Source: Clostridia bacterium (lineage in GTDB: Bacteria > Bacillota > Clostridia > TANB77 > CAG-465). Taken from it: 64,000 bases of DNA. The position numbers and the translations under genes were made by a program. The stretch lies in contig JAOAHC010000040.1 in the NCBI GenBank assembly GCA_026415435.1, forward strand, positions 137,456 through 201,455. The letters are read 5' to 3'. Shown here piece by piece: positions 4,978 to 47,506 of this stretch. Numbering within the stretch: the first letter of the stretch is position 1; each line of letters begins with the position of its first letter. The notes under the pieces were generated by a model, which was given only the letters and a program-made list of their open reading frames with translations, was not told the origin of the DNA and did no database searches.

Positions 4978-7641
4978 TTATAAAGTTTCACCTACTACTA
5001 AAACCGGTCTAAAACTTAAATAGTTAAATGCTGCTCCTGATGAAGCTCCAAAAGTAAATATTCCCGATGCACTAGTTAGATCGTATCCTCCACCTCTTAT
5101 GAAGAATGGAGTATTTGTATATGGTATTGTAGTTTGATCTAAATACCAAGCTGAATCACTTGCAGATCCGTCCTGAGAAGTTTCATAAATAGCGTCTCCT
5201 TTTTTATTTATAGTACCAACATAATTATTTGTATAGTCATCAGTTGTACCTTTATCATAAATATCCTTGTACTTTACATCCGCATTTACAAGATTACTAC
5301 CGTTATTATTTAAATTTGCATTTTGATTATTTATATATGCTGCTGTACACTCCCATGCACCACCACTCATATCATATATTCCATATATATTTCCAGTAGT
5401 AGAAGCATTTATTCCATTTGTTACATCTGTATATGCATAAGTAGTAATGGTGGAAGATGCACTTACAGTAGTACCCGCATTACCTGTTAAATAGTTACTG
5501 TTTGGATTTATCCACACTTCAGCATTTTTACCATATTTACTTTGAGCAAGATAACTTACAGCTCCCCATTCTGTATTCTTCATAAGATGGGTATCTATTC
5601 CTTGACCAGTAGTTCCCCAGCCATACTTGTTATTTGTTTCCATATTTCTACTTGCTGTAAACATTTGAGAAACACTTAAATTTCTTAGTGAACTCACACC
5701 TGGTTTTATATCTAAAGAATCTACAGTTCCACTTACTTCAAACTTTGCTACCCAAATACCAGTAAGTTCTACACTACCAAATTTGAATGCTGGATGTGAT
5801 GTCCATTTATTATTTGATGCATTAGAAGAAGTTCCTACATCTATACTTGAAATAATACTACTATTCCAATTATCATTAGTTCCTTGACTAAATTGCACGT
5901 CTACAACTCCACCTTGTGAAGAATTAGTATGCCACAAACTTGAAATCTTATATATATATCTTGGTATCCAAACCCACATCGATCCATCGGCACTTTGTGC
6001 GTTTGCCCATACTTTATTTTTATAATCATACCATGAAGTATCTGTACTTGGACTTGCTACAGTATCCCAAGCACTTGTAGTTGTGTTCCACTTCTTAGCC
6101 GTAAGACCAGAAACTAATACTGGTGTATTTGAAACTTCATAATCACTTAGATTTTCATTTATTACGAAGATTTTTGTCTCTATCTTTCTTAGTGCAACTG
6201 TACTATTATTATCTGTAACCTCGATTTTATAGTATATTTTACTAGCGTTTACATTATCATAATTTATCTGTCTTGATGTTGTAAGAGAATCTGAATTTAC
6301 AGAAATTATTTGTTCATTTATGTATGTTAAACCATCTAAACTATATGATGATTTTATTTGACTTACTCCTCTTGTACTATATACATTAGTAGTTGAATTA
6401 AATTTTTCTTTTGTTGCACTATTTATGATATTTGATATATTAATAATAGGCTGTACACGAACTCCTTGTAAAATATAGTTGCCTGCCTTGTCAAATACCG
6501 CAATAGAAACCTGATTTACGTTTTTAGGAATGTTAATACTTACAGTATTTGATTCTATATTCTTTAAAACTTTACTTTTTTGTTTCATATATTCAATATC
6601 AAAACTGCTAATATCTTTATAGTAGTTTTGTTCTGTACCATTATCATCTATTCTAGTTAGATAATCATATCTTATCTGATTTACACCACTAGCATTATCA
6701 GCAATATCAAATGTTACAACATTCATATTTGTGTAGCTAGAAGTTAATATATTTGTAACATCTGGATGAGTAAGATCAAGTTTAGTTAGATCTATCCTTA
6801 CCTTACCAATATCACTACTATCTTTTTTCTTTATTATATCCATATACTTTTTATTTTCTAATATATCTGTTATAGCAAATGTAGCAGTATCAGTTAAAAT
6901 ACTATTTGGTGCAAATAAATCAGTTACATTAAAACTTTTTTCATATTCTCCACTTGATGTAATCATTTGTTTTTGAACACCATCAGATATAGATATATAC
7001 ATTGTTTCGTTTGAATCCAAAGTAGTTTTTACTATAAGTGACATTTTACTTGTCCAATCTTTTTGTTTTGTTACATTAATGCCTGAAGAAGAAATGACTT
7101 CGGTTTGTGAACCATCAGGTATACCAAGATTTTGATCTACTTTAACAATATTAGATATTTTAGGACTTATTGAAAAGTATACTGTTGATTTTGCATAAAA
7201 TCCTTTTAGATAATATACGTTCATAGATGGATATGCAATAACAAAAACATCATCTTGACCATCTGTGCCCCTACCGTAAGAAGTACTTTGTACATTTATT
7301 TTACTTAAATCTATTTTGTAATATTCATTCACACTACCATCATTGTTTTGATCAACTTCTGATAAAAATTCACTTTCTACATTATCAGCAACTAATCCAA
7401 TGACTTGATTTTTTGTAAGTGGTTCACTATTTTCATCTGATGTTGGAAACTTTCCATTTGAAATATAGTAAGCTTCACTTGCATCCTCCACTTGTTTTAT
7501 ACTCTCCGCCATTTTAGTTATTGTAGCGTTATCAATAGAATTCTTAGTTGAAATTACCGTTACTGATATTAGTATTAAAGCTACAACTATTGTTATCATT
7601 AGAACTATAAATGAGATACCTTTTTTATTCATAATTTTCAT
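4978..7641 (-). CDS. Large secreted/surface protein: pilin-like N-terminal signal-anchor (MKIMNKKG-ISFIVLMITIVVALIL) + Ig-like region + C-terminal FGE-sulfatase-like (SUMF1-fold) domain
   Basis: 887 aa. The N-terminus resembles a class III (prepilin) signal but lacks Glu+5. The C-terminal region carries GIWVAKFEV, THLMKNTEWGAVSYLAQSKYG (compare RLPTEAEWEYAARGG) and NIYGIYDMSGGAWEC (compare GLYDMSGNVWEW). It is paralogous to the 7673..8947 and 41547..46229 products. Confidence 0.5.
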   Translation of the reverse strand: MKIMNKKGISFIVLMITIVVALILISVTVISTKNSIDNATITKMAESIKQVEDASEAYYISNGKFPTSDENSEPLTKNQVIGLVADNVESEFLSEVDQNNDGSVNEYYKIDLSKINVQSTSYGRGTDGQDDVFVIAYPSMNVYYLKGFYAKSTVYFSISPKISNIVKVDQNLGIPDGSQTEVISSSGINVTKQKDWTSKMSLIVKTTLDSNETMYISISDGVQKQMITSSGEYEKSFNVTDLFAPNSILTDTATFAITDILENKKYMDIIKKKDSSDIGKVRIDLTKLDLTHPDVTNILTSSYTNMNVVTFDIADNASGVNQIRYDYLTRIDDNGTEQNYYKDISSFDIEYMKQKSKVLKNIESNTVSINIPKNVNQVSIAVFDKAGNYILQGVRVQPIINISNIINSATKEKFNSTTNVYSTRGVSQIKSSYSLDGLTYINEQIISVNSDSLTTSRQINYDNVNASKIYYKIEVTDNNSTVALRKIETKIFVINENLSDYEVSNTPVLVSGLTAKKWNTTTSAWDTVASPSTDTSWYDYKNKVWANAQSADGSMWVWIPRYIYKISSLWHTNSSQGGVVDVQFSQGTNDNWNSSIISSIDVGTSSNASNNKWTSHPAFKFGSVELTGIWVAKFEVSGTVDSLDIKPGVSSLRNLSVSQMFTASRNMETNNKYGWGTTGQGIDTHLMKNTEWGAVSYLAQSKYGKNAEVWINPNSNYLTGNAGTTVSASSTITTYAYTDVTNGINASTTGNIYGIYDMSGGAWECTAAYINNQNANLNNNGSNLVNADVKYKDIYDKGTTDDYTNNYVGTINKKGDAIYETSQDGSASDSAWYLDQTTIPYTNTPFFIRGGGYDLTSASGIFTFGASSGAAFNYLSFRPVLVVGETL

Positions 7642-7672: not shown

Positions 7673-8947
7673 TTAATACACCTCAAAACCATCTATTTTT
7701 GTCCAGTTTCCGGAATTATCACTTATTAATACAGAAATACTTTTTATATTTTTAGGTAAATCTATACTATATACACCTTCGGAAATATAACTTGCAACTT
7801 TCCCATACTCGTTTAAATATTCTTTATCCAAACTAGATACATTATTATAGTATGGTAATTCTCCCGAACCAGATTCGTTTGATTTAGTTAAATAATCATA
7901 CTTAATACTTTTTATATTACTGCTATCATCCGAAACTATAAATTTTACTGTGTTTTTATCACTACTACTAACAATATCAGAATCACTTAAAACTGGAGGA
8001 GTATTATCATAGTTTACCAAATCAGATTTTATAGTCTGTTTAGTTATCCCACCATTTTTTATAATTATGGTAATATATCTTTTTGTGTATTCTACATTAT
8101 TAAATGCAGCAATTTCTTCACTAGTAAATGGAGAAATAAGTATATCATTTCCTTGACTATCTTTATTATCACTAAGTAAACTAGACAAATTGAAATTTCT
8201 TATATTATTTCCTTCTTGCATACCAAATACTTCTTTTTCTGTCTGCACACCACTAAGCATTATATATACTTTCTCTGAAGAAACCAAACTTGCTTCAAAC
8301 TTAATAGGCATAGTATTTGTCCAACTATTAGCCAATTTTAAAATTGACAAATTGGCAGTTTTGTTTTGTATATTTTGATTATTTTCTATCTTTACACTTT
8401 GAGCTATATTTAACTTATTACTAAGTGAAAAATACACATTATTTTGTACGTTTAATCCCAATAAATAGTATACTTTCATAGATGGATATGATACTACATA
8501 TACATCATTTTGTCCTAGTGTTTTTGCACCTGCAACAGTAGTTTTAATATTAATTTTACCTAAATCTATTTCATAAAAAGTTCCTAAATTTGAATCATCA
8601 TAATAATCTCCATTTGAAGATAACTCATAAATAAAATTATTTCTATATCTTGAATCAACCATATTTGTAACTTGCGATTGATTTAAACTACTACTTGATG
8701 AATCAGGAACAGGAAAAGTACCATGATTTATATAAAATTCGTTAGTTAAATCTTGTATTTTTGAAAGATCCGTAGCAAAACTTGTTAAAGTAGCTTGGGC
8801 TATACTTGATCTTGTTTGAATTATAGCTGCTGTTATGAGGATAATTGCAGCTATTATTGTAATTATTAAAACTACAAGTGAAACTCCTTTTTTTGAGTTT
8901 TTGATGTTTATATTAAAATCTATATATCTAAAATTAACTATTCTCAC
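7673..8947 (-). CDS. Pilin-like N-terminal signal-anchor protein, a shorter paralog of the 887-aa protein (shared N-terminal and Ig-like regions, no FGE domain)
   Basis: 424 aa, GTG start with an AAGGTGA RBS. KKG-VSLVVLIITII hydrophobic segment. The YEIDLGKINIKTT...GQNDVYVVSYPSMKVYYL and IKYDYLTK...DLPKNIKSISVLISDNSGN blocks align with the 887-aa protein. Confidence 0.5.
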   Translation of the reverse strand: MRIVNFRYIDFNINIKNSKKGVSLVVLIITIIAAIILITAAIIQTRSSIAQATLTSFATDLSKIQDLTNEFYINHGTFPVPDSSSSSLNQSQVTNMVDSRYRNNFIYELSSNGDYYDDSNLGTFYEIDLGKINIKTTVAGAKTLGQNDVYVVSYPSMKVYYLLGLNVQNNVYFSLSNKLNIAQSVKIENNQNIQNKTANLSILKLANSWTNTMPIKFEASLVSSEKVYIMLSGVQTEKEVFGMQEGNNIRNFNLSSLLSDNKDSQGNDILISPFTSEEIAAFNNVEYTKRYITIIIKNGGITKQTIKSDLVNYDNTPPVLSDSDIVSSSDKNTVKFIVSDDSSNIKSIKYDYLTKSNESGSGELPYYNNVSSLDKEYLNEYGKVASYISEGVYSIDLPKNIKSISVLISDNSGNWTKIDGFEVY

Positions 8948-21571: not shown

Positions 21572-22660
21572 TTAAACTATTTTTCTAATTTTACCAATGA
21601 TAAAAGCTGAAATTGGTATTATACACCCTAATCCAACATTAATGTATAAAAATATATTTTTGGATAACATACTTAATTCAAATAAATTCGATGCTATATA
21701 TTGTGCATATACATATACTATAAAAATTACTGGTGTGACAAGCTCTTTAGATGTATTTAAATTAAAGAATTTCTTTATTAGTTTTACTACTATAAACATA
21801 AATATTGATATTATTGCGAAATCCGTAACTATCCATACACATAAGAAAATAGATTCAACCCTTTCTATAATGCTTAATATTTCTATGTCTTTAAAGAATA
21901 TAAAAAATGATAAGTTCAAATTCCCTGTAAGTTTATAACCAAAAATACCTATAGTAATCATAACTATTACAACACTTAGAAATGTCATTGACAAATATAA
22001 TTGCTTAGTATAATTTTTTAATTTATCTTTATTTGCAACTTTATCACCTAGAAAGAACATAAAAGTTATATATCCTAGTATTCCAAATAATGGAACAATC
22101 GAAATGAATACTGGTCCAATATCATATGTAGTTATTGGTAAAATATTAGGCAACTTAACATCTGATAATCCTACAAAAATTGAAATTATCAAAAATATAA
22201 GGAAAATTTTATTATATAACTCCATGAATCTGCCAAAATATTCAATTTTATTTCTTACAACTAAATATGTCATTAAAAGTATAGTTATCATAAAAAATTG
22301 CATTGGACTAAAGATAAAAATACTAGATGTAAGCCTATCTGCAAAATATCTTACATATAGTGCAATCATAGTAATTATCCATATTATATGCATAAATAGT
22401 ACAGTCTTTCCAATTATTTTACCGAATATTTTAATATATATGTCTTCCAAAGAGCCTAATTTTGTTTTAGTAAATAAATTATTTAAAACATATATCAATA
22501 ACATAAAAGGTATAATTGCTAATATTGGAGTAAGCCAAGTAGCTTGTTTTGCTATTTCACCACAATACTTTGGCAAAACTCTAGTTAGTGGTGAAGCTAT
22601 TGAAATTACAAATATTATAAATAATTGTCTTATACTAATCTTACTATTTTCATTATCCAT
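21572..22660 (-). CDS. Spore germinant receptor B subunit (GerAB/GerKB family, APC-type permease)
   Basis: 362 aa, polytopic. KISIRQLFIIFV N-terminus typical of Ger B subunits. Confidence 0.7.
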   Translation of the reverse strand: MDNENSKISIRQLFIIFVISIASPLTRVLPKYCGEIAKQATWLTPILAIIPFMLLIYVLNNLFTKTKLGSLEDIYIKIFGKIIGKTVLFMHIIWIITMIALYVRYFADRLTSSIFIFSPMQFFMITILLMTYLVVRNKIEYFGRFMELYNKIFLIFLIISIFVGLSDVKLPNILPITTYDIGPVFISIVPLFGILGYITFMFFLGDKVANKDKLKNYTKQLYLSMTFLSVVIVMITIGIFGYKLTGNLNLSFFIFFKDIEILSIIERVESIFLCVWIVTDFAIISIFMFIVVKLIKKFFNLNTSKELVTPVIFIVYVYAQYIASNLFELSMLSKNIFLYINVGLGCIIPISAFIIGKIRKIV

Positions 22661-22662
22661 AT

Positions 22663-22863
22663 CTACTCCTCAATATTAAATAATTTAAAAATCACTTCAA
22701 CAAGGCTATCCCTATGCATGTCACTGTAGTAAAATATAGCAAAAGCTATTGCAACTAGTGAAAGACCAATGAACACCATTAAGTTTTTCCTATCTTTTCT
22801 TTTAATCAAAGTAATAATATCAATAACTGTAAAACAAATAAAAAATGCGGAAAATAGCAACAT
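22663..22863 (-). CDS. Small 2-TM membrane protein inside the ger operon (possible germinant-receptor D-type accessory subunit)
   Basis: 66 aa with two hydrophobic helices. Sits between the C and B subunit genes with 2-12 nt gaps. Confidence 0.35.
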   Translation of the reverse strand: MLLFSAFFICFTVIDIITLIKRKDRKNLMVFIGLSLVAIAFAIFYYSDMHRDSLVEVIFKLFNIEE

Positions 22864-22875
22864 ATTTAATCTCCT

Positions 22876-24168
22876 TTATTTATCTTGTAATGTTATTATA
22901 TCGAATGTTCTTCTAATATTACATTTTACATTAACAATAAATTTTGCATTAACTAAAGATTCAACCCATTTATCTTTTATCTTTTTGTATTTATATGGAT
23001 GACTCATCATAACTTTTTCTTCAATATCCAGAAAATCCGCTTTATATTCAACCATTTTTTCTATTACATCTTCTATTTGCAATTTTACTTTTTCAGCTTG
23101 CTTATCCTCATAATATTTAAGCTTATCAATTTTGAATATATTTTCTTTAGTAGCTGCTTCATCTACATTACTCTCAAAACTTGTATTTATAATAACTTCA
23201 TTAAGATTATCTCCATCAAATTTAAATTTATATTTTGTATTGAAGCCAATCATACCAAACGACAATACATTATCTTCACCTTCATATATATCTATATTTG
23301 TACTTCCTTTTCTATTTTTTAATATATTACTGGTTATTGACTCTTGTCTATTTAAGTATCCTGTTAAAACTTTATCTTTAATTACTGCATAGCCATCAAA
23401 ATCAAAAAAAGTTTCACTATTCTCACTTTTTTCTACTACAGTGCTTTGTATTATATTATTTTCTTTTTCTGAATTACTCTTTTTATTTTCTGAATTGCTA
23501 TCTTTACTATCAGATGTATCACCTTTAGGAGATATTATCCTTAAAGTAGGCATTAAAAACGAACTGTTTTTCTTAGATAAATATCCTATTAAATCAATAA
23601 CTGTTAGTTTGTATGATACATTTTTTCCTTCATTGTTTTTTTCCATGCTATTAATTTTTTCATCAAGGTCATAATCTGTATTTACTACTTTTGCTATAAA
23701 ATCCTTTGCTGCCATACCTTTAGTTAGATATATCCCAAGATTAAGTCTAACTTCATAGTCTCTTGCATTAAAATCAATATTTATAGTCATGTCTTTTTTA
23801 CAATATTCTTCACCTAGTAAAAAATATTTAATATGTGAACCACTCATAGATTTATTAACATATGTTTGAAACGTTCTTATCGTATCATCAAAAGTTTGTC
23901 CTTTAACTATAAAATATTTTGTACTACCACTACTACCTGGACTACCTGAAGTACTAGGAGACGATCCTGTACTCTGATTTTGATACGAAACTCTAAGTAT
24001 TGTTTCTTCTACTCTATATTTTTCATCAGTTCCTAAATCCATTCCTATAACCTTAACAAGTTCCACATCTGTAAGTTCCTTCTTAACAGGCATAATTTTT
24101 GAATTTAAAACTATAAATCCAAGTAATATACAAGTAAAGAAAATATATATAAGTTTTCTTTTTGTCAT
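22876..24168 (-). CDS. Spore germinant receptor C subunit (GerAC family lipoprotein)
   Basis: 430 aa. Lipoprotein signal MTKRKLIYIFFTCILLGFIVLNS. Its position between the A and B subunits fits. Contains a Ser/Gly-rich insert. Confidence 0.65.
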   Translation of the reverse strand: MTKRKLIYIFFTCILLGFIVLNSKIMPVKKELTDVELVKVIGMDLGTDEKYRVEETILRVSYQNQSTGSSPSTSGSPGSSGSTKYFIVKGQTFDDTIRTFQTYVNKSMSGSHIKYFLLGEEYCKKDMTINIDFNARDYEVRLNLGIYLTKGMAAKDFIAKVVNTDYDLDEKINSMEKNNEGKNVSYKLTVIDLIGYLSKKNSSFLMPTLRIISPKGDTSDSKDSNSENKKSNSEKENNIIQSTVVEKSENSETFFDFDGYAVIKDKVLTGYLNRQESITSNILKNRKGSTNIDIYEGEDNVLSFGMIGFNTKYKFKFDGDNLNEVIINTSFESNVDEAATKENIFKIDKLKYYEDKQAEKVKLQIEDVIEKMVEYKADFLDIEEKVMMSHPYKYKKIKDKWVESLVNAKFIVNVKCNIRRTFDIITLQDK

Positions 24169-24172
24169 AAAT

Positions 24173-25708
24173 TTACCTCTTAACTTTAGTCTTAGCTTTC
24201 ATATCCGTCATTGGTTTTCTAAATATTGTATCAACATTAATATTCTTATAATCATTAGAAGTAAATGGTGTAAAATATGGTACACCAAAAGATTCCATTG
24301 TTGACAAATAATAAAACATTAAGATAATACCAATAGAAACACCGTAAAGCCCAGCAATTCCCGATAATATAACTAGTGAAAATCTACAAACTCTAAGGGC
24401 ATTTGCAAAGTCTTGATTTGGCATTAAAAATCCAGCTATACCTGTTATTGCTACTATAACTACTACAGATGGCGATACGAAATTTGCATTTACTGCTGCA
24501 TCACCTATAATAAGACCACCAACTATAGAAATAGTTTGCCCAATAGTTTTAGGCAGTCTAGCACTAGCTTCTATTAATATTTCAAAGGAAAGTAGCATAA
24601 ACATTACTTCAAGTAATACCGGAAATGGCTCACCTTGCTTACTCTTAATTATTGATATTGCTAGTTTTGTTGGTATCATTTCTTGATGAAATGTTGAAAT
24701 AGCTAGAAAAAACGATGGTAATATAATAGTAATTACTGTACAAAAATATCTTAATACTCTTAATGCTGAACTTATAAAATAGTTTACTGAATAATCTTCC
24801 GGAGTTTGGAAAAACATATTTAGTACAGCAGGTAGAATATAGGCAACTGGAAATCCATCGATTAATATTCCTATTTTCCCCTCTAATAAGTTCGAAATTA
24901 ATTTTTCTGATTTTTCAGTATAAATTAATTGGGGAAACACTGAGTATTTCTTACAAACTATATTTTCTTCAACATCTGCAATTGTTAACATCTTATCAAT
25001 ATTTATATTTTTAATTCTAGACAACACTTTATCTAGTACTATCTTATCAACTATACTTTCCATATATAGTACACTAATAGATGTGGGTGTTACGTTACCT
25101 ACTTTAAATTCCTTTATTTTAAGATCAGCGCTTTTAATTCTATTTCTAATTAATGACGTATTTATTTTAATGTTTTCTATAAATGCTTCTTTTGAACCCT
25201 TTATTATATTTTCATTTGTGGGTTCTGTTAAATTTCTTTTTTCTATCTTTTTTATATCAAATGTAATAGCTCTATCTTTTATTTTTGTACTAATTAAACA
25301 CGCGCAACAATCTAAAATATCAGTTATAACATCATTTAAATTATTTCTTATATTGTTAGAGGTATGTGGTATTATTCCTCTTTCTAATATACTTAGAATA
25401 TCAGAATTTCTATTGTTTTCATTTGACTCAGTTAAATCTTTAGGTAAACATGAACAATTAGTACTTTCAATCTGCATAATAGGCCTTAATATATTATTAT
25501 CAACTAATTCTATGTCTATTGTATTTTGGAAATATATTAGTATTAAGGTTTCATTACTAAAATGAATTTCTCTATATTGAATATCATCACTATTTTCAAA
25601 AATAATCTTAATGTTTTCAATACTTATTTCACCATTTAAAGACTTATTTTTAGGTGGATTAGGATTATTCGGATTTATTTTTTTATATAATCTCCACTTA
25701 TCTAACAT
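24173..25708 (-). CDS. Spore germinant receptor A subunit (GerAA/GerKA family)
   Basis: 511 aa. Soluble N-domain plus C-terminal TM bundle. First gene of the A-C-(D)-B string. Confidence 0.75.
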   Translation of the reverse strand: MLDKWRLYKKINPNNPNPPKNKSLNGEISIENIKIIFENSDDIQYREIHFSNETLILIYFQNTIDIELVDNNILRPIMQIESTNCSCLPKDLTESNENNRNSDILSILERGIIPHTSNNIRNNLNDVITDILDCCACLISTKIKDRAITFDIKKIEKRNLTEPTNENIIKGSKEAFIENIKINTSLIRNRIKSADLKIKEFKVGNVTPTSISVLYMESIVDKIVLDKVLSRIKNINIDKMLTIADVEENIVCKKYSVFPQLIYTEKSEKLISNLLEGKIGILIDGFPVAYILPAVLNMFFQTPEDYSVNYFISSALRVLRYFCTVITIILPSFFLAISTFHQEMIPTKLAISIIKSKQGEPFPVLLEVMFMLLSFEILIEASARLPKTIGQTISIVGGLIIGDAAVNANFVSPSVVVIVAITGIAGFLMPNQDFANALRVCRFSLVILSGIAGLYGVSIGIILMFYYLSTMESFGVPYFTPFTSNDYKNINVDTIFRKPMTDMKAKTKVKR

Positions 25709-40405: not shown

Positions 40406-40567
40406 AATATCACTCCTAAAACTACATGTATTTATATTATATCATATAATTTAAAATTTATTACTTAAATCACTAACTAACTTACTGTATAATATATTGT
40501 GTATAAAGTTATATATTTTTAACAAAATATATGATAGAATATTCTTATATTTTCAGGAGGTTATTTT

Positions 40568-41467
40568 ATGAAACACATAATATGCATCAATCCTGTTGCT
40601 GGTAAAGGGAAAAACGAAAAATTTGGTATTAGAATACAAAAAATACTGAAAAAATATGGTATAGATTCGGAAATTATAGTTTCAAAATACTCTGGACATA
40701 TAACTGAACTCACAAAAGAATATTCGAAAAAACAAACCTGTAGATTCTACAGTGTAGGTGGAGATGGTACATTAAATGAAATTGTATCTGGTATAATAGG
40801 CAGTGAATCTGATATTGTAATTGTACCTTGTGGAACTGGAAATGACTTTATAAAAAGCACATCAAAATATATGAGTATGAGAAAAATTATACTAAACTCT
40901 ATTGGCAAGACTTCGCAGAAAGTAGACGTACTTAAAATAAATAATTTAAACAAATATTGTATAAATATTCTTAGCTGTGGTTTTGATTCAATGGTAGCAA
41001 AAAATGTGGATAAATTCAGAAAAATACCATTCATATCTGGAAAGGTTAAATATAATTTATCTATAATATATACTTTGTTTTCTAACAGAAATTTTAGATT
41101 TAAAATGAGAGTTAAACATAAAGGTGATACTAAAGTTATAAAGCAAAACTATACACTTGTAGCTGTTTCAAACGGCAAATACTACGGCGGTGGTATTTTT
41201 CCTTGTCCAGATGCCAAGGTATCAGATGGAATTATAAATATATGCTTTATTGATAGTACTACAATATTTAAAAAATTAATTCTACTTCCTTATTATAAAA
41301 AAGGAACTCATACTAAATTAAAACAAGCACATTTTTTAGAAACAGAAAACCTATCAATTGTATCAAGTAAAGAATTTCCTGCAAATGTAGATGGAGAAGT
41401 ATTTTATACTAATAAGTTAAGTATATCCATAATACCGAGTGCAGTTAATATTGTATATATAAATTAA
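40568..41467 (+). CDS. DAGK_cat-family lipid kinase (YegS/BmrU/DagK-like)
   Basis: 299 aa with a VGGDGTLNE catalytic-loop motif. Confidence 0.7.
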   Translation: MKHIICINPVAGKGKNEKFGIRIQKILKKYGIDSEIIVSKYSGHITELTKEYSKKQTCRFYSVGGDGTLNEIVSGIIGSESDIVIVPCGTGNDFIKSTSKYMSMRKIILNSIGKTSQKVDVLKINNLNKYCINILSCGFDSMVAKNVDKFRKIPFISGKVKYNLSIIYTLFSNRNFRFKMRVKHKGDTKVIKQNYTLVAVSNGKYYGGGIFPCPDAKVSDGIINICFIDSTTIFKKLILLPYYKKGTHTKLKQAHFLETENLSIVSSKEFPANVDGEVFYTNKLSISIIPSAVNIVYIN

Positions 41468-41546
41468 CTTAATATATAACACATAATATATATTAAAAAT
41501 AGAATGAAGATACCTATAATAACTTCATTCTATTTTTTTCTGTATA

Positions 41547-44500
41547 TTACATATACATTTTAATCCTTATATAATCCATATAAACTCTTTTGTTAGCTAC
41601 ATAAGCCCATATTCCAAAATTTTGACTACTAGGTAATGTTGTTATATAACCACTAGTAAGTAAACTGCCATTTTTGTATAGCTCATATGCTTTACTTTTA
41701 TATAAAACAAATCTCCATGTATTATCACCAGATACGAAGTTTCCATTTGAATAAAATGTAGTAATTGTACTTCCATTCATAATATTTAGTGTATCCGCAT
41801 AATCTCTGTGATAATTAATGCTAAATAATCCAAAATTTATATCTGATCTATAATTAGTTCCGTAAGATGCAGAATTAAAATGAAATGATACCTCTACTCT
41901 ATCATAAGTATTGTTATATCCCCAAGTCCTATTATATGTACAAGTAAAATTAGAAGTCCCTGCTGTATGTGTCCAGTAAGTACCAGAATATATACTACCC
42001 TTATCAAAATTATTTACAGTCATTTCATCAATAAGTGCTTCAACAACAACCTGTGTAATTGTCGCACCAGATGTTGTAATTGTAGTATAATATCCATTAT
42101 TATCGTAAATATATATATTTGTTGAATATATACCATATTCATTATTATGATCTGATCTGTTTACCCTATAATACCATGTGCCATTTCCTAAATTTTGACC
42201 ACTAGCAATAGGATTTGTTGACCAATTAGATTGTATGTCATCTTGACCATTATTGTTAGTCCATGTTGGAAATTGAACTCTATTAATTCCACTTGCTGAA
42301 TCAGCTATTCCATATACATATACATCATATCCATCTTCAGTTACATTATTTATAATGTAACTTGTATATGTAGGAGCAGTCGTATCTCTATTTACACTTA
42401 CCATACTTGAATTTGGGCCTATATTACCAGCATTATCAATTGCTCTTATCCAGATATTTCTTTGTCCATCCGTATTTATTACCCATGGACTTGTCACATC
42501 TATCCATCCACTTGTTCCATTTAATGAATATTGATATTTTTGTATACCTGACTGACTATCTGTAGTACTAAATGTAAGTGTTACGTTACTTGATGTCCAT
42601 GATCCACTAGTATAGCCATTTAAATTTACTGTAGGAACTCCTGGGGAAGTCCTATCTATGTTAGTTACAGTTAAAGTAGAAGCTTCACTTGTATTCCCTG
42701 ATGAATCTTTTCCTCTTGCATAGACCGTTGTATTATTTGTTGTAACTACTACTGGTGTTGTATAATTACTCCATGTTGTCCCATTCAAACTATATTCTTT
42801 TACCGTTACATCAGATGGATATGTTATTGTAACTGTTACATTTCCACTAGTCCATCCTGTTGGATTTGCTAACATTATTGGATTATCTGGTGCTGTCACA
42901 TCTTTTTCAAATAGATTAGAATGTGTTATTACCTCGTTTCCTGCTTTATCTTTTCCCTTTATCCATAAATATTGTGACATATTTTCATTACTTGTTAGAG
43001 TTGCTCCATTTGTAAATGTTATCCATCCACTTGTAGGCTCAGTTTCACTTGCAGTCCATATATACTGTAATGATGTATTATCTATTCCACTTCCTCCTAC
43101 ATCTGATACTGTTACCTTTGAACTTAATGATTTGTCAAATCCACCGTTTGGTGAAAATGTTATTGTTGGACTTGCATTATCTATTGCAAAGGTTGTACTG
43201 CTCCTTAAATCATTTCTATTTCCAGATGAATCTTCTATCATTCCTTTTTGTATTTCTATTTTAACTCCAGATATATTTCTTGTAACTTCACTTTCTACCG
43301 TTAAATCCACATACCATTTATGAATATTATTTGGATCCATTCTTACTGTTTTTAATATTTCACTATCCGATATTATTATTGAACCAGTTTTAACTAATAT
43401 ATTTTCTAATATATTTTCTTCTGTTATTATTGTATCATTTAATTCATTTGAATTATCTGTAAATGTTAAACTATATGTAACTATATCTCCAGCCTTTGCA
43501 TAAGTTTTACTTGGCTGTGATATTGTTATTCCAGGTTTTGTTGTATCATACATTACTTCTAAGTAATCTGTATTTGAATCTGTGCTTGATGGTCCCTTAC
43601 TGCAATATGCTTTAAATTTTGTTGTTCTAGTCACATTGGTTATGCTGTAATAATATATCCCGGTATTTTCATCTCTAAGCATATTTATATCATTTTTAGC
43701 TACTAATGTCCATGTTGCTGGTTCTGCTGTTCCTGTCCATCTTTTATAATACATATATTCTGATTCTTTTGGGTATGATATTACTACTTTTTCTCCCACT
43801 CTTAATGTTACACCATTATTCTCATATTCAGGAAAGTCTATATCTGTACCATATGGATTATCTGACCCCATTCCTTCTTCTACTATTCTTGATGTTATAT
43901 ATATACTTGGATCAGTTACTCTGTCTGGCATTGCTTCTATATCTTCTTTTATTGTTAGAACCGGTCTAAAACCTACGCCACCAGATCCATACCCTGAATA
44001 ACTCCTATATGAGTACATTCCTATCCTTGCATTTTGAGATGTACCAGGTCTTAATCCTCCTCTTAGTATAAATGGTGCTGAGTTTTGTGGATACACACTA
44101 TAGTCACCATACCAGCTACTATATGAATTTACATTTGTATTTAATATTTTATATAACGATGCTCCACTGGTATTATATACACCTTTATCTGCTAAACTTG
44201 ATAACAACTCATAGTTTTGACTTGATATATTTTGTCTTACAGTCGCATTAGGTAATTTTGCTGAATTATCTTTATCCAATTGTGACGAAGGATATTTATC
44301 AAAGTATTTATCTAATCCACTATATACTCCACCTGTATATTTTATATATCTATGATTATTGTTAACATATGAAGCGACCATTTCTTCTGATCCTCCTGCC
44401 ATATCATAAATTCCATATACATTTTTTGTTGTACTTGCATTTACTCCATATTTTGTATTATCATACGCAAATGTAGTTGTATTTAAAGCTGCACCGTACG

Positions 44501-46229
44501 TTGGTGTTGCTGTCTTTCCTGAATAACCTGTTCTCAAATAGTAATTATTATTTATCCATACTTCTTCGCCATTTCTTCCATATTTACTTTGTGTTAAATA
44601 TTCTATTGCATCCCACTCTCTGTTTTTTATCAAATGAGTATCAATGCTTATTCCGTCCGTTCCAAATCCATATTTACTATCTGTTTTCATATTTATACAA
44701 TAGTTAAAAGCATCTTTTAATGCTATAAGTCTCCAGCTTCCAACTCCTGGTTTTACTTGTATTCTATATTTTGTCTTATTATTTGCATCTTTATATGTAG
44801 CTCTGCTCGCCTCAAACTTCGCTACCCATATACCTTGTAACTGAAGTTTCTCCCCTTCTTTTGGTTCTACTTCAAACGCTGATGCTAAAGTGTATCCTGT
44901 TGGTGCATCTGCACTTCCTTGTATGAATTTTATATCTACTACTCCAGCACTACTACTATGTGTCCCACTTGTTATCTTATATGCAAACCTTGGTATCCAT
45001 ACCCACATACTTCCGTCACTACTTTGCGCATTTGCCCAATACTGTGATTCTGTCTTATATGAGTACCATGATTTATCTAGATTAGTTACTTCTATCCATT
45101 GATTCCCTGTCCACTCTACTGGTTTTAATATTTTTTCTGTGCTGTTTTCACCTTTTGTAAGCAGTGGCTCATTTCCTTCATTTCCACTATCCCATTTAGC
45201 ATTTATATCTATATATGGTTCATCTCCTATTGTTATTATCTCTATTGTTGCCTCTGACTGTCCATATGTATTTATCGCCTTTGCATATATTGTTCCATTC
45301 GTATTTACCACAAATGGTGAACTATACGATGAATATGTTTCTCCATCAAAACTATATTGTACTACATCTGCATTTCTTGTATTTATTGTTACTGTAACAT
45401 TTCCAGAGGGCTTATTCGCTATAGTTTGTTCTGGATTTGTTACTATAGATATATCTGGTTCCTTCTTTATATTTACTATATCTAATTGATCTGTAACTTC
45501 TCCTGCTGCATTTAAAGCTCTTCCATATACTACTCCATTATCATATACCTTGAAACTACCTTGATACAAGCTATATGTTTCTCCATCTAAGCTATACTCT
45601 ACTTTATTCGCATTATTTGCTGTTAACTTTACATTTACTTCTGTTGTAGATCCAGCCTCTTCTTCTTGAGCTGGTGTTGCTTCCATTTGTAGTGTAGGTA
45701 ATACTTCCTCCCTTGCTACTTCTGTTCCTCCGTATACACTATACCATCTTTTATTTCCTATATCTTGTCCTTGCTCATAAAATATTTTACCCGTATCCAT
45801 ATCTTGTATTATACTTGCACTTTTTGTTATATATCCACCCTCAGTTGTAGGCCCACTATTTATATTTAATTCCAAATCAGATAGCTTTACGTAGTATAAT
45901 TTACCTTGTTTGGTATCTATAGTTGTACTTAACACTTGCTCCATATGTGTTATTAGATCAGCTGATAATGTTGATATATCAACTATTCCCGCTTCTCCTT
46001 TATCCGTATCTATAGGATTTATATTATTATCTTGATTGTTTGCATATTTACTTGTTTTATATAAATTTATAGCTTGCTCTATACTATTCATATCATTCAT
46101 AAATCTTGCTTTTGATGCAGATTCTCCTATACCATTTGATGCAGTAAGTATTACAGCTGTAGCTATTATAACTATAACTATTATCGTTATTATTAAAGTT
46201 ATTAGTGATATTCCTCTTATATTTTTCAT
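41547..46229 (-). CDS. Giant multidomain secreted/surface protein: pilin-like N-terminal signal-anchor + CHB_HEX_C-like repeats + FGE-sulfatase-like domain + Ig-like repeats + GBS Bsp-like repeat + C-terminal concanavalin/LamG-like lectin domain
   Basis: 1560 aa. MKNIRG-ISLITLIITIIVIVII N-terminus. Tandem ~75-aa repeats (VEYSLDGETYSLY / VQYSFDGETYSSY). The WANAQSSDGSMWVWIPRFAYKI block and FGE motifs (GIWVAKFEA, THLIKNREWDAIEYLTQSKYG, NVYGIYDMAGG) are shared with the 887-aa protein. FPTWTNNNGQDDIQ...YGIY...IYIYDNNG matches the Bsp-like repeat. C-terminal lectin-like beta-sandwich. Confidence 0.5.
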   Translation of the reverse strand: MKNIRGISLITLIITIIVIVIIATAVILTASNGIGESASKARFMNDMNSIEQAINLYKTSKYANNQDNNINPIDTDKGEAGIVDISTLSADLITHMEQVLSTTIDTKQGKLYYVKLSDLELNINSGPTTEGGYITKSASIIQDMDTGKIFYEQGQDIGNKRWYSVYGGTEVAREEVLPTLQMEATPAQEEEAGSTTEVNVKLTANNANKVEYSLDGETYSLYQGSFKVYDNGVVYGRALNAAGEVTDQLDIVNIKKEPDISIVTNPEQTIANKPSGNVTVTINTRNADVVQYSFDGETYSSYSSPFVVNTNGTIYAKAINTYGQSEATIEIITIGDEPYIDINAKWDSGNEGNEPLLTKGENSTEKILKPVEWTGNQWIEVTNLDKSWYSYKTESQYWANAQSSDGSMWVWIPRFAYKITSGTHSSSAGVVDIKFIQGSADAPTGYTLASAFEVEPKEGEKLQLQGIWVAKFEASRATYKDANNKTKYRIQVKPGVGSWRLIALKDAFNYCINMKTDSKYGFGTDGISIDTHLIKNREWDAIEYLTQSKYGRNGEEVWINNNYYLRTGYSGKTATPTYGAALNTTTFAYDNTKYGVNASTTKNVYGIYDMAGGSEEMVASYVNNNHRYIKYTGGVYSGLDKYFDKYPSSQLDKDNSAKLPNATVRQNISSQNYELLSSLADKGVYNTSGASLYKILNTNVNSYSSWYGDYSVYPQNSAPFILRGGLRPGTSQNARIGMYSYRSYSGYGSGGVGFRPVLTIKEDIEAMPDRVTDPSIYITSRIVEEGMGSDNPYGTDIDFPEYENNGVTLRVGEKVVISYPKESEYMYYKRWTGTAEPATWTLVAKNDINMLRDENTGIYYYSITNVTRTTKFKAYCSKGPSSTDSNTDYLEVMYDTTKPGITISQPSKTYAKAGDIVTYSLTFTDNSNELNDTIITEENILENILVKTGSIIISDSEILKTVRMDPNNIHKWYVDLTVESEVTRNISGVKIEIQKGMIEDSSGNRNDLRSSTTFAIDNASPTITFSPNGGFDKSLSSKVTVSDVGGSGIDNTSLQYIWTASETEPTSGWITFTNGATLTSNENMSQYLWIKGKDKAGNEVITHSNLFEKDVTAPDNPIMLANPTGWTSGNVTVTITYPSDVTVKEYSLNGTTWSNYTTPVVVTTNNTTVYARGKDSSGNTSEASTLTVTNIDRTSPGVPTVNLNGYTSGSWTSSNVTLTFSTTDSQSGIQKYQYSLNGTSGWIDVTSPWVINTDGQRNIWIRAIDNAGNIGPNSSMVSVNRDTTAPTYTSYIINNVTEDGYDVYVYGIADSASGINRVQFPTWTNNNGQDDIQSNWSTNPIASGQNLGNGTWYYRVNRSDHNNEYGIYSTNIYIYDNNGYYTTITTSGATITQVVVEALIDEMTVNNFDKGSIYSGTYWTHTAGTSNFTCTYNRTWGYNNTYDRVEVSFHFNSASYGTNYRSDINFGLFSINYHRDYADTLNIMNGSTITTFYSNGNFVSGDNTWRFVLYKSKAYELYKNGSLLTSGYITTLPSSQNFGIWAYVANKRVYMDYIRIKMYM

Positions 46230-46294
46230 ATTTTATCCCTCTTATACTTGTACAAAACTCTCACAAAATATTTATTTTTGTATTACACATACAT

Positions 46295-46323
46295 ATTCTA
46301 TAGTATATTAAATATATTGTCAA
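46295..46323 (-). promoter_or_regulatory. Strong sigma-A-type promoter for the 1560-aa gene (TTGACA, 17 nt, TAGAAT on the minus strand)
   Basis: Minus-strand -35 at 46318-46323 and -10 at 46295-46300, about 65 nt upstream of the ATG at 46229. Confidence 0.4.
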
Positions 46324-46360
46324 CCCTATTTTATATTTACTTTTCAGTTTATATTAAATG

Positions 46361-46395
46361 AAAAAAGAGAATGAGAATAATAGTATTATTCTCAT
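46361..46395 (-). terminator. Terminator downstream of the 46449..46859 ORF, insulating it from the 1560-aa gene
   Basis: Perfect 11-bp stem atgagaataat / attattctcat with a 3-nt loop, followed by TCTCTTTTTT on the minus strand. Confidence 0.5.
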
Positions 46396-46448
46396 AACTC
46401 TTTACACATTTTTAATAAAGTTTTATATATTAATATTTACATTCTTTT

Positions 46449-46859
46449 TTAATTTCTTACAAAAATCCAAGAATCCTGCTTATGTTTTTCCATAGGCATA
46501 CGAGTTATATTAATTCTTGCTAATTTTTCATTTTCAATACTTTTCCATATAAAATCTAATATAAAAGTACCGAATATTAAAAACTCGATTTTCTCTTTTT
46601 TAGTAATACAAGATACTAAATAAAGTGTACATGAATCCTTTAATATGCCTTCACCTATATGTTCTTTTATTGCATTTTTCCAAATTTCATGTGTTATTAT
46701 TTCAAAAAAGGAATTCTTATTAAAAATAACAATATTAATATTTTTCTTTCTTTCTCCTATTGCAACAAATTCATCAACTTTTTTTCTTGTCTTGCTCCTT
46801 TTCCATAGCATGTCTACTCCCCCTAAAGTCTTATTTTGGAAATTAATATAGTTGTACAC
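46449..46859 (-). CDS. Hypothetical protein (136 aa)
   Basis: Open frame between the CDP-alcohol transferase gene and a terminator. No motif recognised. Confidence 0.35.
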   Translation of the reverse strand: MYNYINFQNKTLGGVDMLWKRSKTRKKVDEFVAIGERKKNINIVIFNKNSFFEIITHEIWKNAIKEHIGEGILKDSCTLYLVSCITKKEKIEFLIFGTFILDFIWKSIENEKLARINITRMPMEKHKQDSWIFVRN

Positions 46860-46914
46860 ATTATATCACATATTTTATATCATGTATAGCTATATACATA
46901 ATATTTTTATCTAT

Positions 46915-47436
46915 CTAACTTATAATTGACTTCTTATTTATCTCTAGAGTTTTAGATGTAATATTTATTAGCAATTCTTCAATTGAAAAAACAAGTGCTA
47001 CTGTGCAAATAGTGTAAATTATTAAATCATGATTTAGTTTATTAATAAAATATGGAAATAAAAATAATATTAATCCTATGATTTTATTACCATATGTATG
47101 TAATATAGCAAATGTTTTGTATTTTTTAAATATAAGAATTATTGATGAACATTTAATTATTAATATAATTCCTATATATACTATATACGTTATTTCTCCT
47201 AATATAATTGGATATATAATTATAGCCATTACAATAAAAAATATAAGATCAGCTATCGTATCTAATTTTGCACCAAATTTGCTTTCAGTTTTTGTCTTTC
47301 TTGCTATATATCCATCTGCTATATCTGTAAGCCCACAAATAGTATAAATTATTAAAAATATTATACTAAATGGTTTTAAAAACAGTAGAATTATGGATAG
47401 TATTATCCTTGACATTGTTATACTATTAGCTAACAT
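46915..47436 (-). CDS. CDP-alcohol phosphatidyltransferase family protein (small, 173 aa)
   Basis: Complete D-G-x2-A-R-x8-G-x3-D-x3-D signature: DGYIARKTKTESKFGAKLDTIAD. Confidence 0.65.
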   Translation of the reverse strand: MLANSITMSRIILSIILLFLKPFSIIFLIIYTICGLTDIADGYIARKTKTESKFGAKLDTIADLIFFIVMAIIIYPIILGEITYIVYIGIILIIKCSSIILIFKKYKTFAILHTYGNKIIGLILFLFPYFINKLNHDLIIYTICTVALVFSIEELLINITSKTLEINKKSIIS

Positions 47437-47506
47437 TTTATCCCCCTATCACATAAATACACTCATATAGAATAATCCTCTATATGAGCGTATAAATATA
47501 TTTAAA

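Follow-up and report, generated by a model that had tools for sequence, protein, structure and literature searches.

The gene on the minus strand at positions 41547..46229 of the 64-kb stretch of DNA analysed here (hereafter the window), from an uncultured Clostridia bacterium, encodes a protein of 1560 aa in which a pilin-like N-terminus is followed by a long series of other modules. We lean towards regarding this protein (hereafter the target) as a modular surface adhesin derived from type IV pilins and lacking the glutamate at position 5 of the mature chain (Glu5), and most likely as one of many interchangeable adhesins. Judging from profile comparisons, homology to the class III signal peptide and alpha-1 helix of type IV pilins and pseudopilins covers its first ~64 residues, and a C-type-lectin-fold domain of the kind found in variable proteins of diversity-generating retroelements (DGRs) is, as far as sequence comparison can tell, the ligand-binding module of its family. 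An identical protein (P0001) can be found in NCBI nr under the title 'MAG: GBS Bsp-like repeat-containing protein [Clostridia bacterium]', a name that misses both the pilin-derived carrier and the DGR-type ligand-binding domain.

The pilin-like N-terminus

The modules were mapped by BLAST of 106 homologs onto the target, by Pfam and NCBIfam scans and with two AlphaFold models. The first two are:

46038..46229, minus strand: residues 1-64, class-III-like signal and long alpha-1 helix (AlphaFold 2 (AF2) helix 9-64, profile matches)
45696..46037, minus strand: residues 65-178, small alpha/beta head, a candidate pilin head (AF2, short helix and 4-5 strands)

The leader MKNIRG, ending at Gly6, precedes the mature part ISLITLIITIIVIVIIA. 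A short basic leader with Gly at -1 and some 20 hydrophobic residues after it, as in type IV pilins, is present in the target, and the mature part starts with ISLIT (ISLITLIITIIVIVIIATAVIL), with Ile1 and Thr5 in place of Phe1 and Glu5. In the AF2 model, a helix of 56 residues (9-64) is followed by a short helix and four to five strands, the head being modelled with a confidence score (pLDDT) of 55-80. Regarding known pilins, a profile of the N-terminal family (A1) matches the alpha-1 region of geopilin (6e-7), PilE1 (9e-4) and PilA5 (2e-3) in the PDB, and a second profile (A4) matches geopilin (7e-5) and GspG (0.02). Matches of profile A4 to polyubiquitin (1.9e-11) were rejected as an artefact, being sums of nine repeats of ~10 bits with individual E-values of ~4. 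The GspG model TIGR01710 matches 14 of 22 N-terminal domains of the family, with 2.5e-8 for the best relative and 0.0084-0.12 for the target itself.

A basic residue, Gly-1 (in alignments A1, A3 and A4), Ser/Thr+2 and Thr+10 are invariant in the alignments of the N-terminal family, which is more than a plain membrane anchor would need, and position +5 is Thr or Val, never Glu. A search with the N-domain profile gave 422 proteins. The top 120 are small proteins of 103-333 aa, each with Ile+1 and Val/Thr+5. Some N-domain relatives carry no cargo and others carry LRR_5, dockerin, LamG, RCC1 or Fn3 domains. Architectures were counted over 99 open reading frames (ORFs) with a lectin-fold domain in the fetched loci. 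Most of these start with G-I-[ST]-L-I-x-L-V-x-T-I, whereas about ten, in homologous lectin-fold proteins of other lineages, have GFTLIELLAVI, a canonical signal with Glu5. The pilin-like N-terminus put forward in a preliminary description of this DNA is thus borne out by the profile matches and by the operons described below.

Two cargo-free proteins with this N-terminal domain, P0234 (189 aa; 53% identical to the target over target residues 1-57) and P0232 (148 aa), are encoded within operons for type IV pili in two distinct metagenomic Clostridia. The gene order is PilM/N-like, three small genes, the Glu5-less pilin, an A24_N gene, two small genes, PilB (MshEN and T2SSE domains), PilT and PilC (T2SSF domain). 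As a comparison of sequences and gene order can indicate, these operons are the strongest evidence that the Glu5-less N-terminus would work as a pilin module and not as a mere hydrophobic anchor. The PilD-like gene of the two operons (L086:10756-11559 and L090:4880-5746) matches A24_N_bact with E-values of 6.7e-30 and 8.2e-29, respectively. Its C-terminal half looks like a pilin, with the canonical motif KKGVFVIELVV, and the gene would be a fusion of the PilD N-domain with a pilin, devoid of the catalytic part.

Filament display or membrane anchoring

In the reading that we favour, the N-terminus would be inserted in the membrane, and a prepilin peptidase would probably remove the leader by cleavage behind Gly6. 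The pilin module would then allow the protein to be taken up by a type IV pilus apparatus whose genes would lie elsewhere in the genome, and to be displayed at or in a filament rather than left simply anchored in the membrane. The head domain is followed by a string of Ig-like spacers and by the lectin-fold binding module, after which come further modules of the adhesin type, the Bsp-like repeat and the rare C-terminal domain. Residues 726-753 of the lectin-fold module may bind a ligand, such as a glycan or some other molecule of a surface. The window's three paralogs, like the numerous ones per genome in relatives, would serve as alternative subunits that bear cargo.

Modular type IV pilins are known from Streptococcus sanguinis, namely PilB with a vWA module and PilC with a lectin module, and a survey of such proteins found >1,200 of them in 264 architectures (PMC8179133, PMC9934059). 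As in the target, an N-terminal pilin module is associated with bulky non-pilus binding modules in a monoderm bacterium, and display at the tip for adhesion has been proposed. However, the genes of PilB and PilC lie in the pilus operon and their signals are canonical, including Glu5, whereas the target has neither Glu5 nor an IPR012902-type motif, is encoded by an isolated gene and has a cargo of ~1400 aa with at least eight modules, the display of which we infer. Pilins without Glu5 do exist: GspK (the K subunit of the HIJK complex) and S. sanguinis PilA sit at the filament tip (PMC8179133, PMC9934059) and share with the target a class III-type signal, Gly at -1 and the lack of Glu5. Those are single small subunits, one per operon, whereas here hundreds of proteins lack Glu5, including the pilin-sized gene product of the operon.

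Several results weigh against filament display. Glu5, a hallmark of type IV pilins usually accompanied by Phe or Met at +1, is absent from the target, which has Thr5, and neither PF07963 (N_methyl) nor TIGR02532 matches it at E<=1. With 170 kDa, the cargo by far exceeds every pilin for which display has been demonstrated. Fold searches with the head domain, modelled at only modest pLDDT, were dominated by Ig hits and for that reason gave no match to pilins. Regarding the machinery, no PilB, PilC or PilD gene can be found in the 64-kb window, nor was any found beside the ~90 fetched loci of the family; in the two operons with the Glu5-less pilin, the PilD-like genes have no Peptidase_A24 domain, which makes cleavage uncertain. 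With regard to Glu5, even the pilin of those operons lacks it, so packing rules may differ from those of known systems. If pilus machinery does handle such a module, this would challenge the requirement for Glu5 outside the tip subunit of bacterial pilins.

The main alternative, which we hold to be rather unlikely, is a membrane-anchored protein spanning the wall, in which the pilin-derived helix is a relic signal-anchor, either uncleaved or cleaved and never polymerised. The Ig-like string would then carry the lectin-fold and other binding modules beyond the wall, and a pilus would play no part. The missing Glu5, needed below the tip in known filaments (PMC9934059), is in line with such an anchor. 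So are the genes scattered among housekeeping genes far from any machinery, the family sizes of about 370 to 2714 aa with several copies per genome, and the occurrence of the same N-terminus on cargo as diverse as LRR_5, dockerin, RCC1 and Fn3, as would befit a generic anchor. In contrast, a relic would hardly account for the strict conservation of the positions recognised by the peptidase (basic residue, Gly-1, Ser/Thr+2) and of the alpha-1 register, for the same N-terminus on the pilin gene of type IV pilus operons, or for the canonical prepilin signals on orthologous proteins.

The lectin-fold domain and its link to diversity-generating retroelements

The domain on which the family is defined, and the stretch within it that is discussed most below, are located as follows:

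43941..45209, minus strand: residues 341-763, FGE-subtype C-type-lectin domain, TaqVP-like, family-defining, holding the WANAQS..MWVWIPR block
43971..44054, minus strand: residues 726-753, between RGG and GFRPV, equivalent of the DGR variable region of relatives (alignment with L037)

The preliminary description had a WANAQS block followed by a domain resembling the formylglycine-generating enzyme (FGE). The resemblance stands at the level of the fold, but the block and the FGE-like part form one domain (residues 341-763), related to a non-enzymatic DGR scaffold of the TaqVP type. This domain has the FGE-subtype C-type-lectin fold typical of DGR variable proteins of the lectin type; its best structural match is TaqVP (PDB 5VF4), which is not an enzyme, and a sequence profile reaches 5vf4 at 1.4e-4. 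TaqVP is the variable protein of a Thermus aquaticus DGR, and its fold serves as a ligand-binding scaffold (bioRxiv 10.1101/432187). Together with TvpA and Mtd, TaqVP is among the known proteins closest to the target. TaqVP consists of a single domain without a targeting signal, with a C-terminal variable region beside the template repeat, Avd and the reverse transcriptase (RT), whereas in the target the domain is internal to a 1560-aa surface protein with no DGR parts within 64 kb.

Relatives of this domain can be found at no fewer than 589 loci (at least 589, in a scan of species-representative genomes), in metagenome-assembled genomes (MAGs) of uncultured Clostridia, Bacilli, 'Bacillales' UBA5026 and UBA660, and Mollicutes, many of them from gut or rumen; among the matches listed, several genomes hold several copies. 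What these unculturable bacteria adhere to is likely to depend in large part on this family. The earlier view that the protein matches no characterised family holds for the protein as a whole, although the protein is part of a very large family, as yet uncharacterised, and fits the concept of modular type IV pilins (PMC8179133). A phage origin of the family was considered and rejected, as PHROGs gave nothing for the target and 2.9 million viral contigs gave two weak partial matches. In about four fifths of the 99 ORFs the domain ends at most 3 residues from the C-terminus, and most of the proteins have 450-800 aa within the full range of lengths given above. The target, with 797 residues after the domain, is an outlier. 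A second copy of the domain is present in P0002, one of the closest homologs.

A link of the family to DGRs emerged from self-comparison of all fetched loci for imperfect repeats with adenine-biased mismatches, by which two cases were found. Locus L037 holds a complete DGR cassette with a variable protein, a template repeat, bAvd (9.6e-23) and an RT (RVT_1, 4.9e-20). The variable protein (607 aa) combines NKGITLIALVVTIIV... with a lectin-fold domain; the last 146 nt of its gene recur 140 nt downstream. Of the 25 differences between the two copies, 22 fall on adenines of the downstream one, so that Asn codons of the template become varied codons in the gene. The second case, L077 (801-4400), is a pair of variable and template repeats with 25 of 30 mismatches at template adenines, adjoining a Mob_Pre relaxase gene (5.7e-40) on a 5-kb contig. 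Its variable region is frameshifted by 1 nt relative to the template, so that the copy is probably defective.

The variable region of L037 aligns to residues 726-753 of the target (LRPGTSQNARIGMYSYRSYSGYGSGGVG). This stretch is the least conserved part of the domain, with identities of 0.44 to P0002 and 0.40 to P0003 against ~0.8 elsewhere, and is presumed from these alignments to be the specificity-determining surface. The window contains no template-like repeat with adenine differences, and phmmer searches of all its ORFs with the L037 RT and Avd found neither. It follows that the target belongs to a family exploited by DGRs without being diversified itself, or is at most diversified remotely. 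DGRs are able to act on remote targets.

It is improbable, in our view, that the target is itself an active DGR target, with a retroelement and a template repeat located elsewhere in the genome serving to rewrite residues 726-753 and to make the protein a hypervariable adhesin; this would fit either mode of display. Such activity would agree with the TaqVP type of the domain, with the position of the variable/template pairs in L037 and L077, which is exactly equivalent, with the divergence of this stretch from the closest homologs and with the remote reach of DGRs. However, apart from the lack of DGR parts in the window, the domain is internal, unlike that of nearly all relatives, DGR parts occur at only two or three of ~80 loci, and the stretch contains Gln and Met, which are beyond the reach of adenine mutagenesis of AAY codons. 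Regarding population data or copies of a template, exact scans of metagenomes for the flanks of the stretch returned 0 matches.

A role of the domain as a surface-tethered enzyme, either formylglycine-generating or an oxidase of the sulfoxide-synthase type, is very improbable and was rejected: the fold does belong to the FGE superfamily and 8 of 33 relatives weakly match PF03781 (FGE/SUMF1; best 2.1e-5), but the target has no match to it at E<=1, the closest structure, TaqVP, is non-enzymatic, residues 726-753 contain no Cys, no Cys is among the invariant columns of the domain family, and the segment equivalent to 726-753 is the one that, after RGG, holds the cysteine pair (Cys-x4-Cys) of human FGE.

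DGR-diversified adhesive subunits have been described on type V pili of Bacteroides, in a study that also recognises a TaqVP-like class (bioRxiv 10.1101/2024.11.15.621889). Both cases share the idea of a lectin-fold domain, variable by way of a DGR, that gut bacteria present on a pilus subunit, but type V pili belong to Bacteroidota and follow another assembly route, and the TaqVP-like class there is prophage-borne, whereas the family of the target is cellular. The diversification of adhesins by DGRs, a recent finding for Bacteroides type V pili, would with this family extend to type IV pilin carriers in Gram-positives. A 'GspG-type pilin' domain is listed among rare domains bearing variable regions in one survey (PMC11661182). 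In a limited literature search, which is no proof of novelty, no paper was found that joins DGRs with type IV pilins, and none with the motif ITLIALV. Modular pilins, lectin-fold DGR variable proteins and Ig-like, Bsp or OmpL47 repeats are each of a known kind. In contrast, the systematic use of a Glu5-less pilin carrier, the pairing of this carrier with a TaqVP-like head and the targeting of such pilin-borne heads by DGRs in Gram-positives appear undescribed in the literature searched.

More tentatively still, and with the odds as we see them clearly against it, a wider proposal can be made. Uncultured Clostridia, and possibly related Bacilli, would have a distinct type IV filament system in which every subunit lacks Glu5, the operon pilin included, and in which the PilD-like gene of the operon has exchanged its peptidase domain for a fusion with a pilin-like module. 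Each genome would have dozens of genes in scattered positions, that of the target among them, for interchangeable cargo subunits, some with lectin-fold heads programmable by DGRs. If so, Gram-positive bacteria would display hypervariable adhesins on pili with an assembly chemistry unlike that of canonical type IV pili.

Other modules, gene signals and neighbouring genes

The remainder of the protein is divided as follows:

45474..45695, minus strand: residues 179-252, CHB_HEX_C-type beta-sandwich 1 (Pfam PF13290, AF2)
45234..45455, minus strand: residues 259-332, CHB_HEX_C-type beta-sandwich 2 (Pfam PF13290, AF2)
43230..43940, minus strand: residues 764-1000, beta-rich region, common over its whole length only to P0002 and P0003
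42360..43229, minus strand: residues 1001-1290, three Ig-like / OmpL47-type beta-barrel repeats with D-x-T-x-P linkers (NF047446)
42078..42341, minus strand: residues 1297-1384, GBS Bsp-like repeat (PF08481)
41550..42077, minus strand: residues 1385-1560, rare C-terminal domain with few relatives and no Pfam family

The preliminary description had read the protein as a serial fusion, and both this reading and most of its module names proved correct. Its two CHB_HEX_C-like repeats correspond to a match of CHB_HEX_C_1 (PF13290) on residues 185-345 (3.3e-7, above the cut-off, in two stretches) and to two beta-sandwiches in the AF2 model. Its Ig-like repeats are recovered by the OmpL47-type barrel model NF047446 on residues 1000-1290 (5e-28, three stretches), the middle repeat having a weak CHB_HEX_C match as well, and its GBS Bsp-like repeat by PF08481 on residues 1297-1384 (E 1.4e-10; 41.4 bits against a cut-off of 31.6). 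With Leptospira OmpL47 and GBS Bsp surface proteins the target has only these spacer or repeat modules in common; the OmpL47 equivalog model gives 48.7 bits against a cut-off of 250. Regarding the beta-rich region, its second half has an Ig-like look and ends with D-x-[ST]-x-P, and over residues 765-1000 a word-index homology search was empty and Pfam gave noise only and no family.

The C-terminal domain has 12 relatives among 1.84 billion representative proteins, and no Pfam family was found over this region in the target or in these relatives. Comparison with the PDB (profiles A5 and A6) gave sub-threshold matches only, to the calreticulin lectin domain (0.34) and pyocin L2 (0.34), and hhalign against a LamG_3 domain gave a sub-threshold probability of 1.5%; a LamG/ConA-like fold of residues 1385-1560 is possible but unverified. 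Cohesin domains can be found in relatives of this domain (P0113 and P0117). Separately, P0233 (L088:6937-7545 and L089:10001-10609), of ~200 aa, has the Glu5-less pilin-like N-terminus together with Dockerin_1 and adjoins mraZ and the dcw cluster. The dockerin proteins and the cohesin-bearing relatives hint at a cohesin-dockerin partner system.

Up to about residue 1270 the target is colinear with its two closest homologs, P0002 (69% identity) and P0003 (65%). Beyond this point the C-termini are unrelated: the target has the Bsp repeat and the rare domain, P0002 a second Ig-Ig-lectin-fold unit and P0003 a glycine-rich module. Compared in this way, the 3' ends of the three genes look like products of cassette swapping.

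Around the gene, the following elements were located:

41547..46229, minus strand: coding sequence, 1560 aa and stop codon, with ATG start, identical to P0001 in NCBI nr
~46403..46361, minus strand: upstream intrinsic-terminator-like hairpin and T-run, with an 11-bp perfect AT-rich stem inside a longer stem
46323..46295, minus strand: sigma-70-type promoter TTGACA-17-TAGAAT, between the terminator and the ribosome-binding site
46235..46242, minus strand: ribosome-binding site AAGAGGGA, 5 nt before the ATG, read from the sequence
41495..41539, both strands: bidirectional terminator, common to the target gene and a convergent diacylglycerol-kinase-like gene (40568..41467, plus strand)

The target gene is a self-contained unit of terminator, promoter and ribosome-binding site. 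Its open frame, found exactly as first described, measures 4.7 kb in DNA of 27.3% GC and cannot be due to chance. The terminator and promoter noted earlier were both recovered. The hairpin at 46361..46403 (minus strand), which ends a preceding 136-aa ORF, folds as RNA with -21.6 kcal/mol (z -3.4); a scan for a GC-rich consensus missed it because the stem is AT-rich. The promoter matches the consensus at 11 of 12 positions and is the top site in 40500-47500 (7 kb), in a region where, at 27% GC, weaker sites are many and the total of promoter-like sites is not above that of shuffles. Folding energies of the downstream terminator are -22.4 kcal/mol (minus strand, z -5.5) and -20.1 kcal/mol (plus strand, z -6.6).

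The target was also correctly recognised as the third family member, at a locus distant from the other two, minus-strand genes of the window at 4978..7641 (887 aa) and 7673..8947 (424 aa) whose products share this type of N-terminus. These tandem paralogs lie directly upstream of an addA-like helicase gene. The 887-aa paralog has a C-terminal lectin-fold domain, 43% identical to that of the target, and hence the architecture typical of the family, unlike the target; the 424-aa paralog has no lectin-fold domain. The other genes across the window are of housekeeping, sporulation or germination type. Genes of the GerA type for spore germination (GerAB-, GerAC- and GerAA-like by eye) can be found at 21572..25708 (minus strand), which marks the organism as a spore former and fits the label 'Clostridia bacterium'. 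The 136-aa ORF directly upstream of the target gene (46449..46859, minus strand) has a weak match to the ThsB-type TIR-like family PF08937 (E 9e-4; 20.0 bits, just below the cut-off of 21.2) and a promoter-like site of its own with a TG extension (46888-46860).

At the fetched loci of the family, four matches to a regular expression for PilB-type Walker A motifs were traced to ABC exporters beside TetR genes and rejected as pilus ATPases. Lectin-fold genes adjoin a pair of large ABC exporter genes in L010, L011, L034 and L073, from different MAGs; in L011 and L073 the pair has a TetR-like gene in front of it, and in L011 two tandem lectin-fold genes follow.

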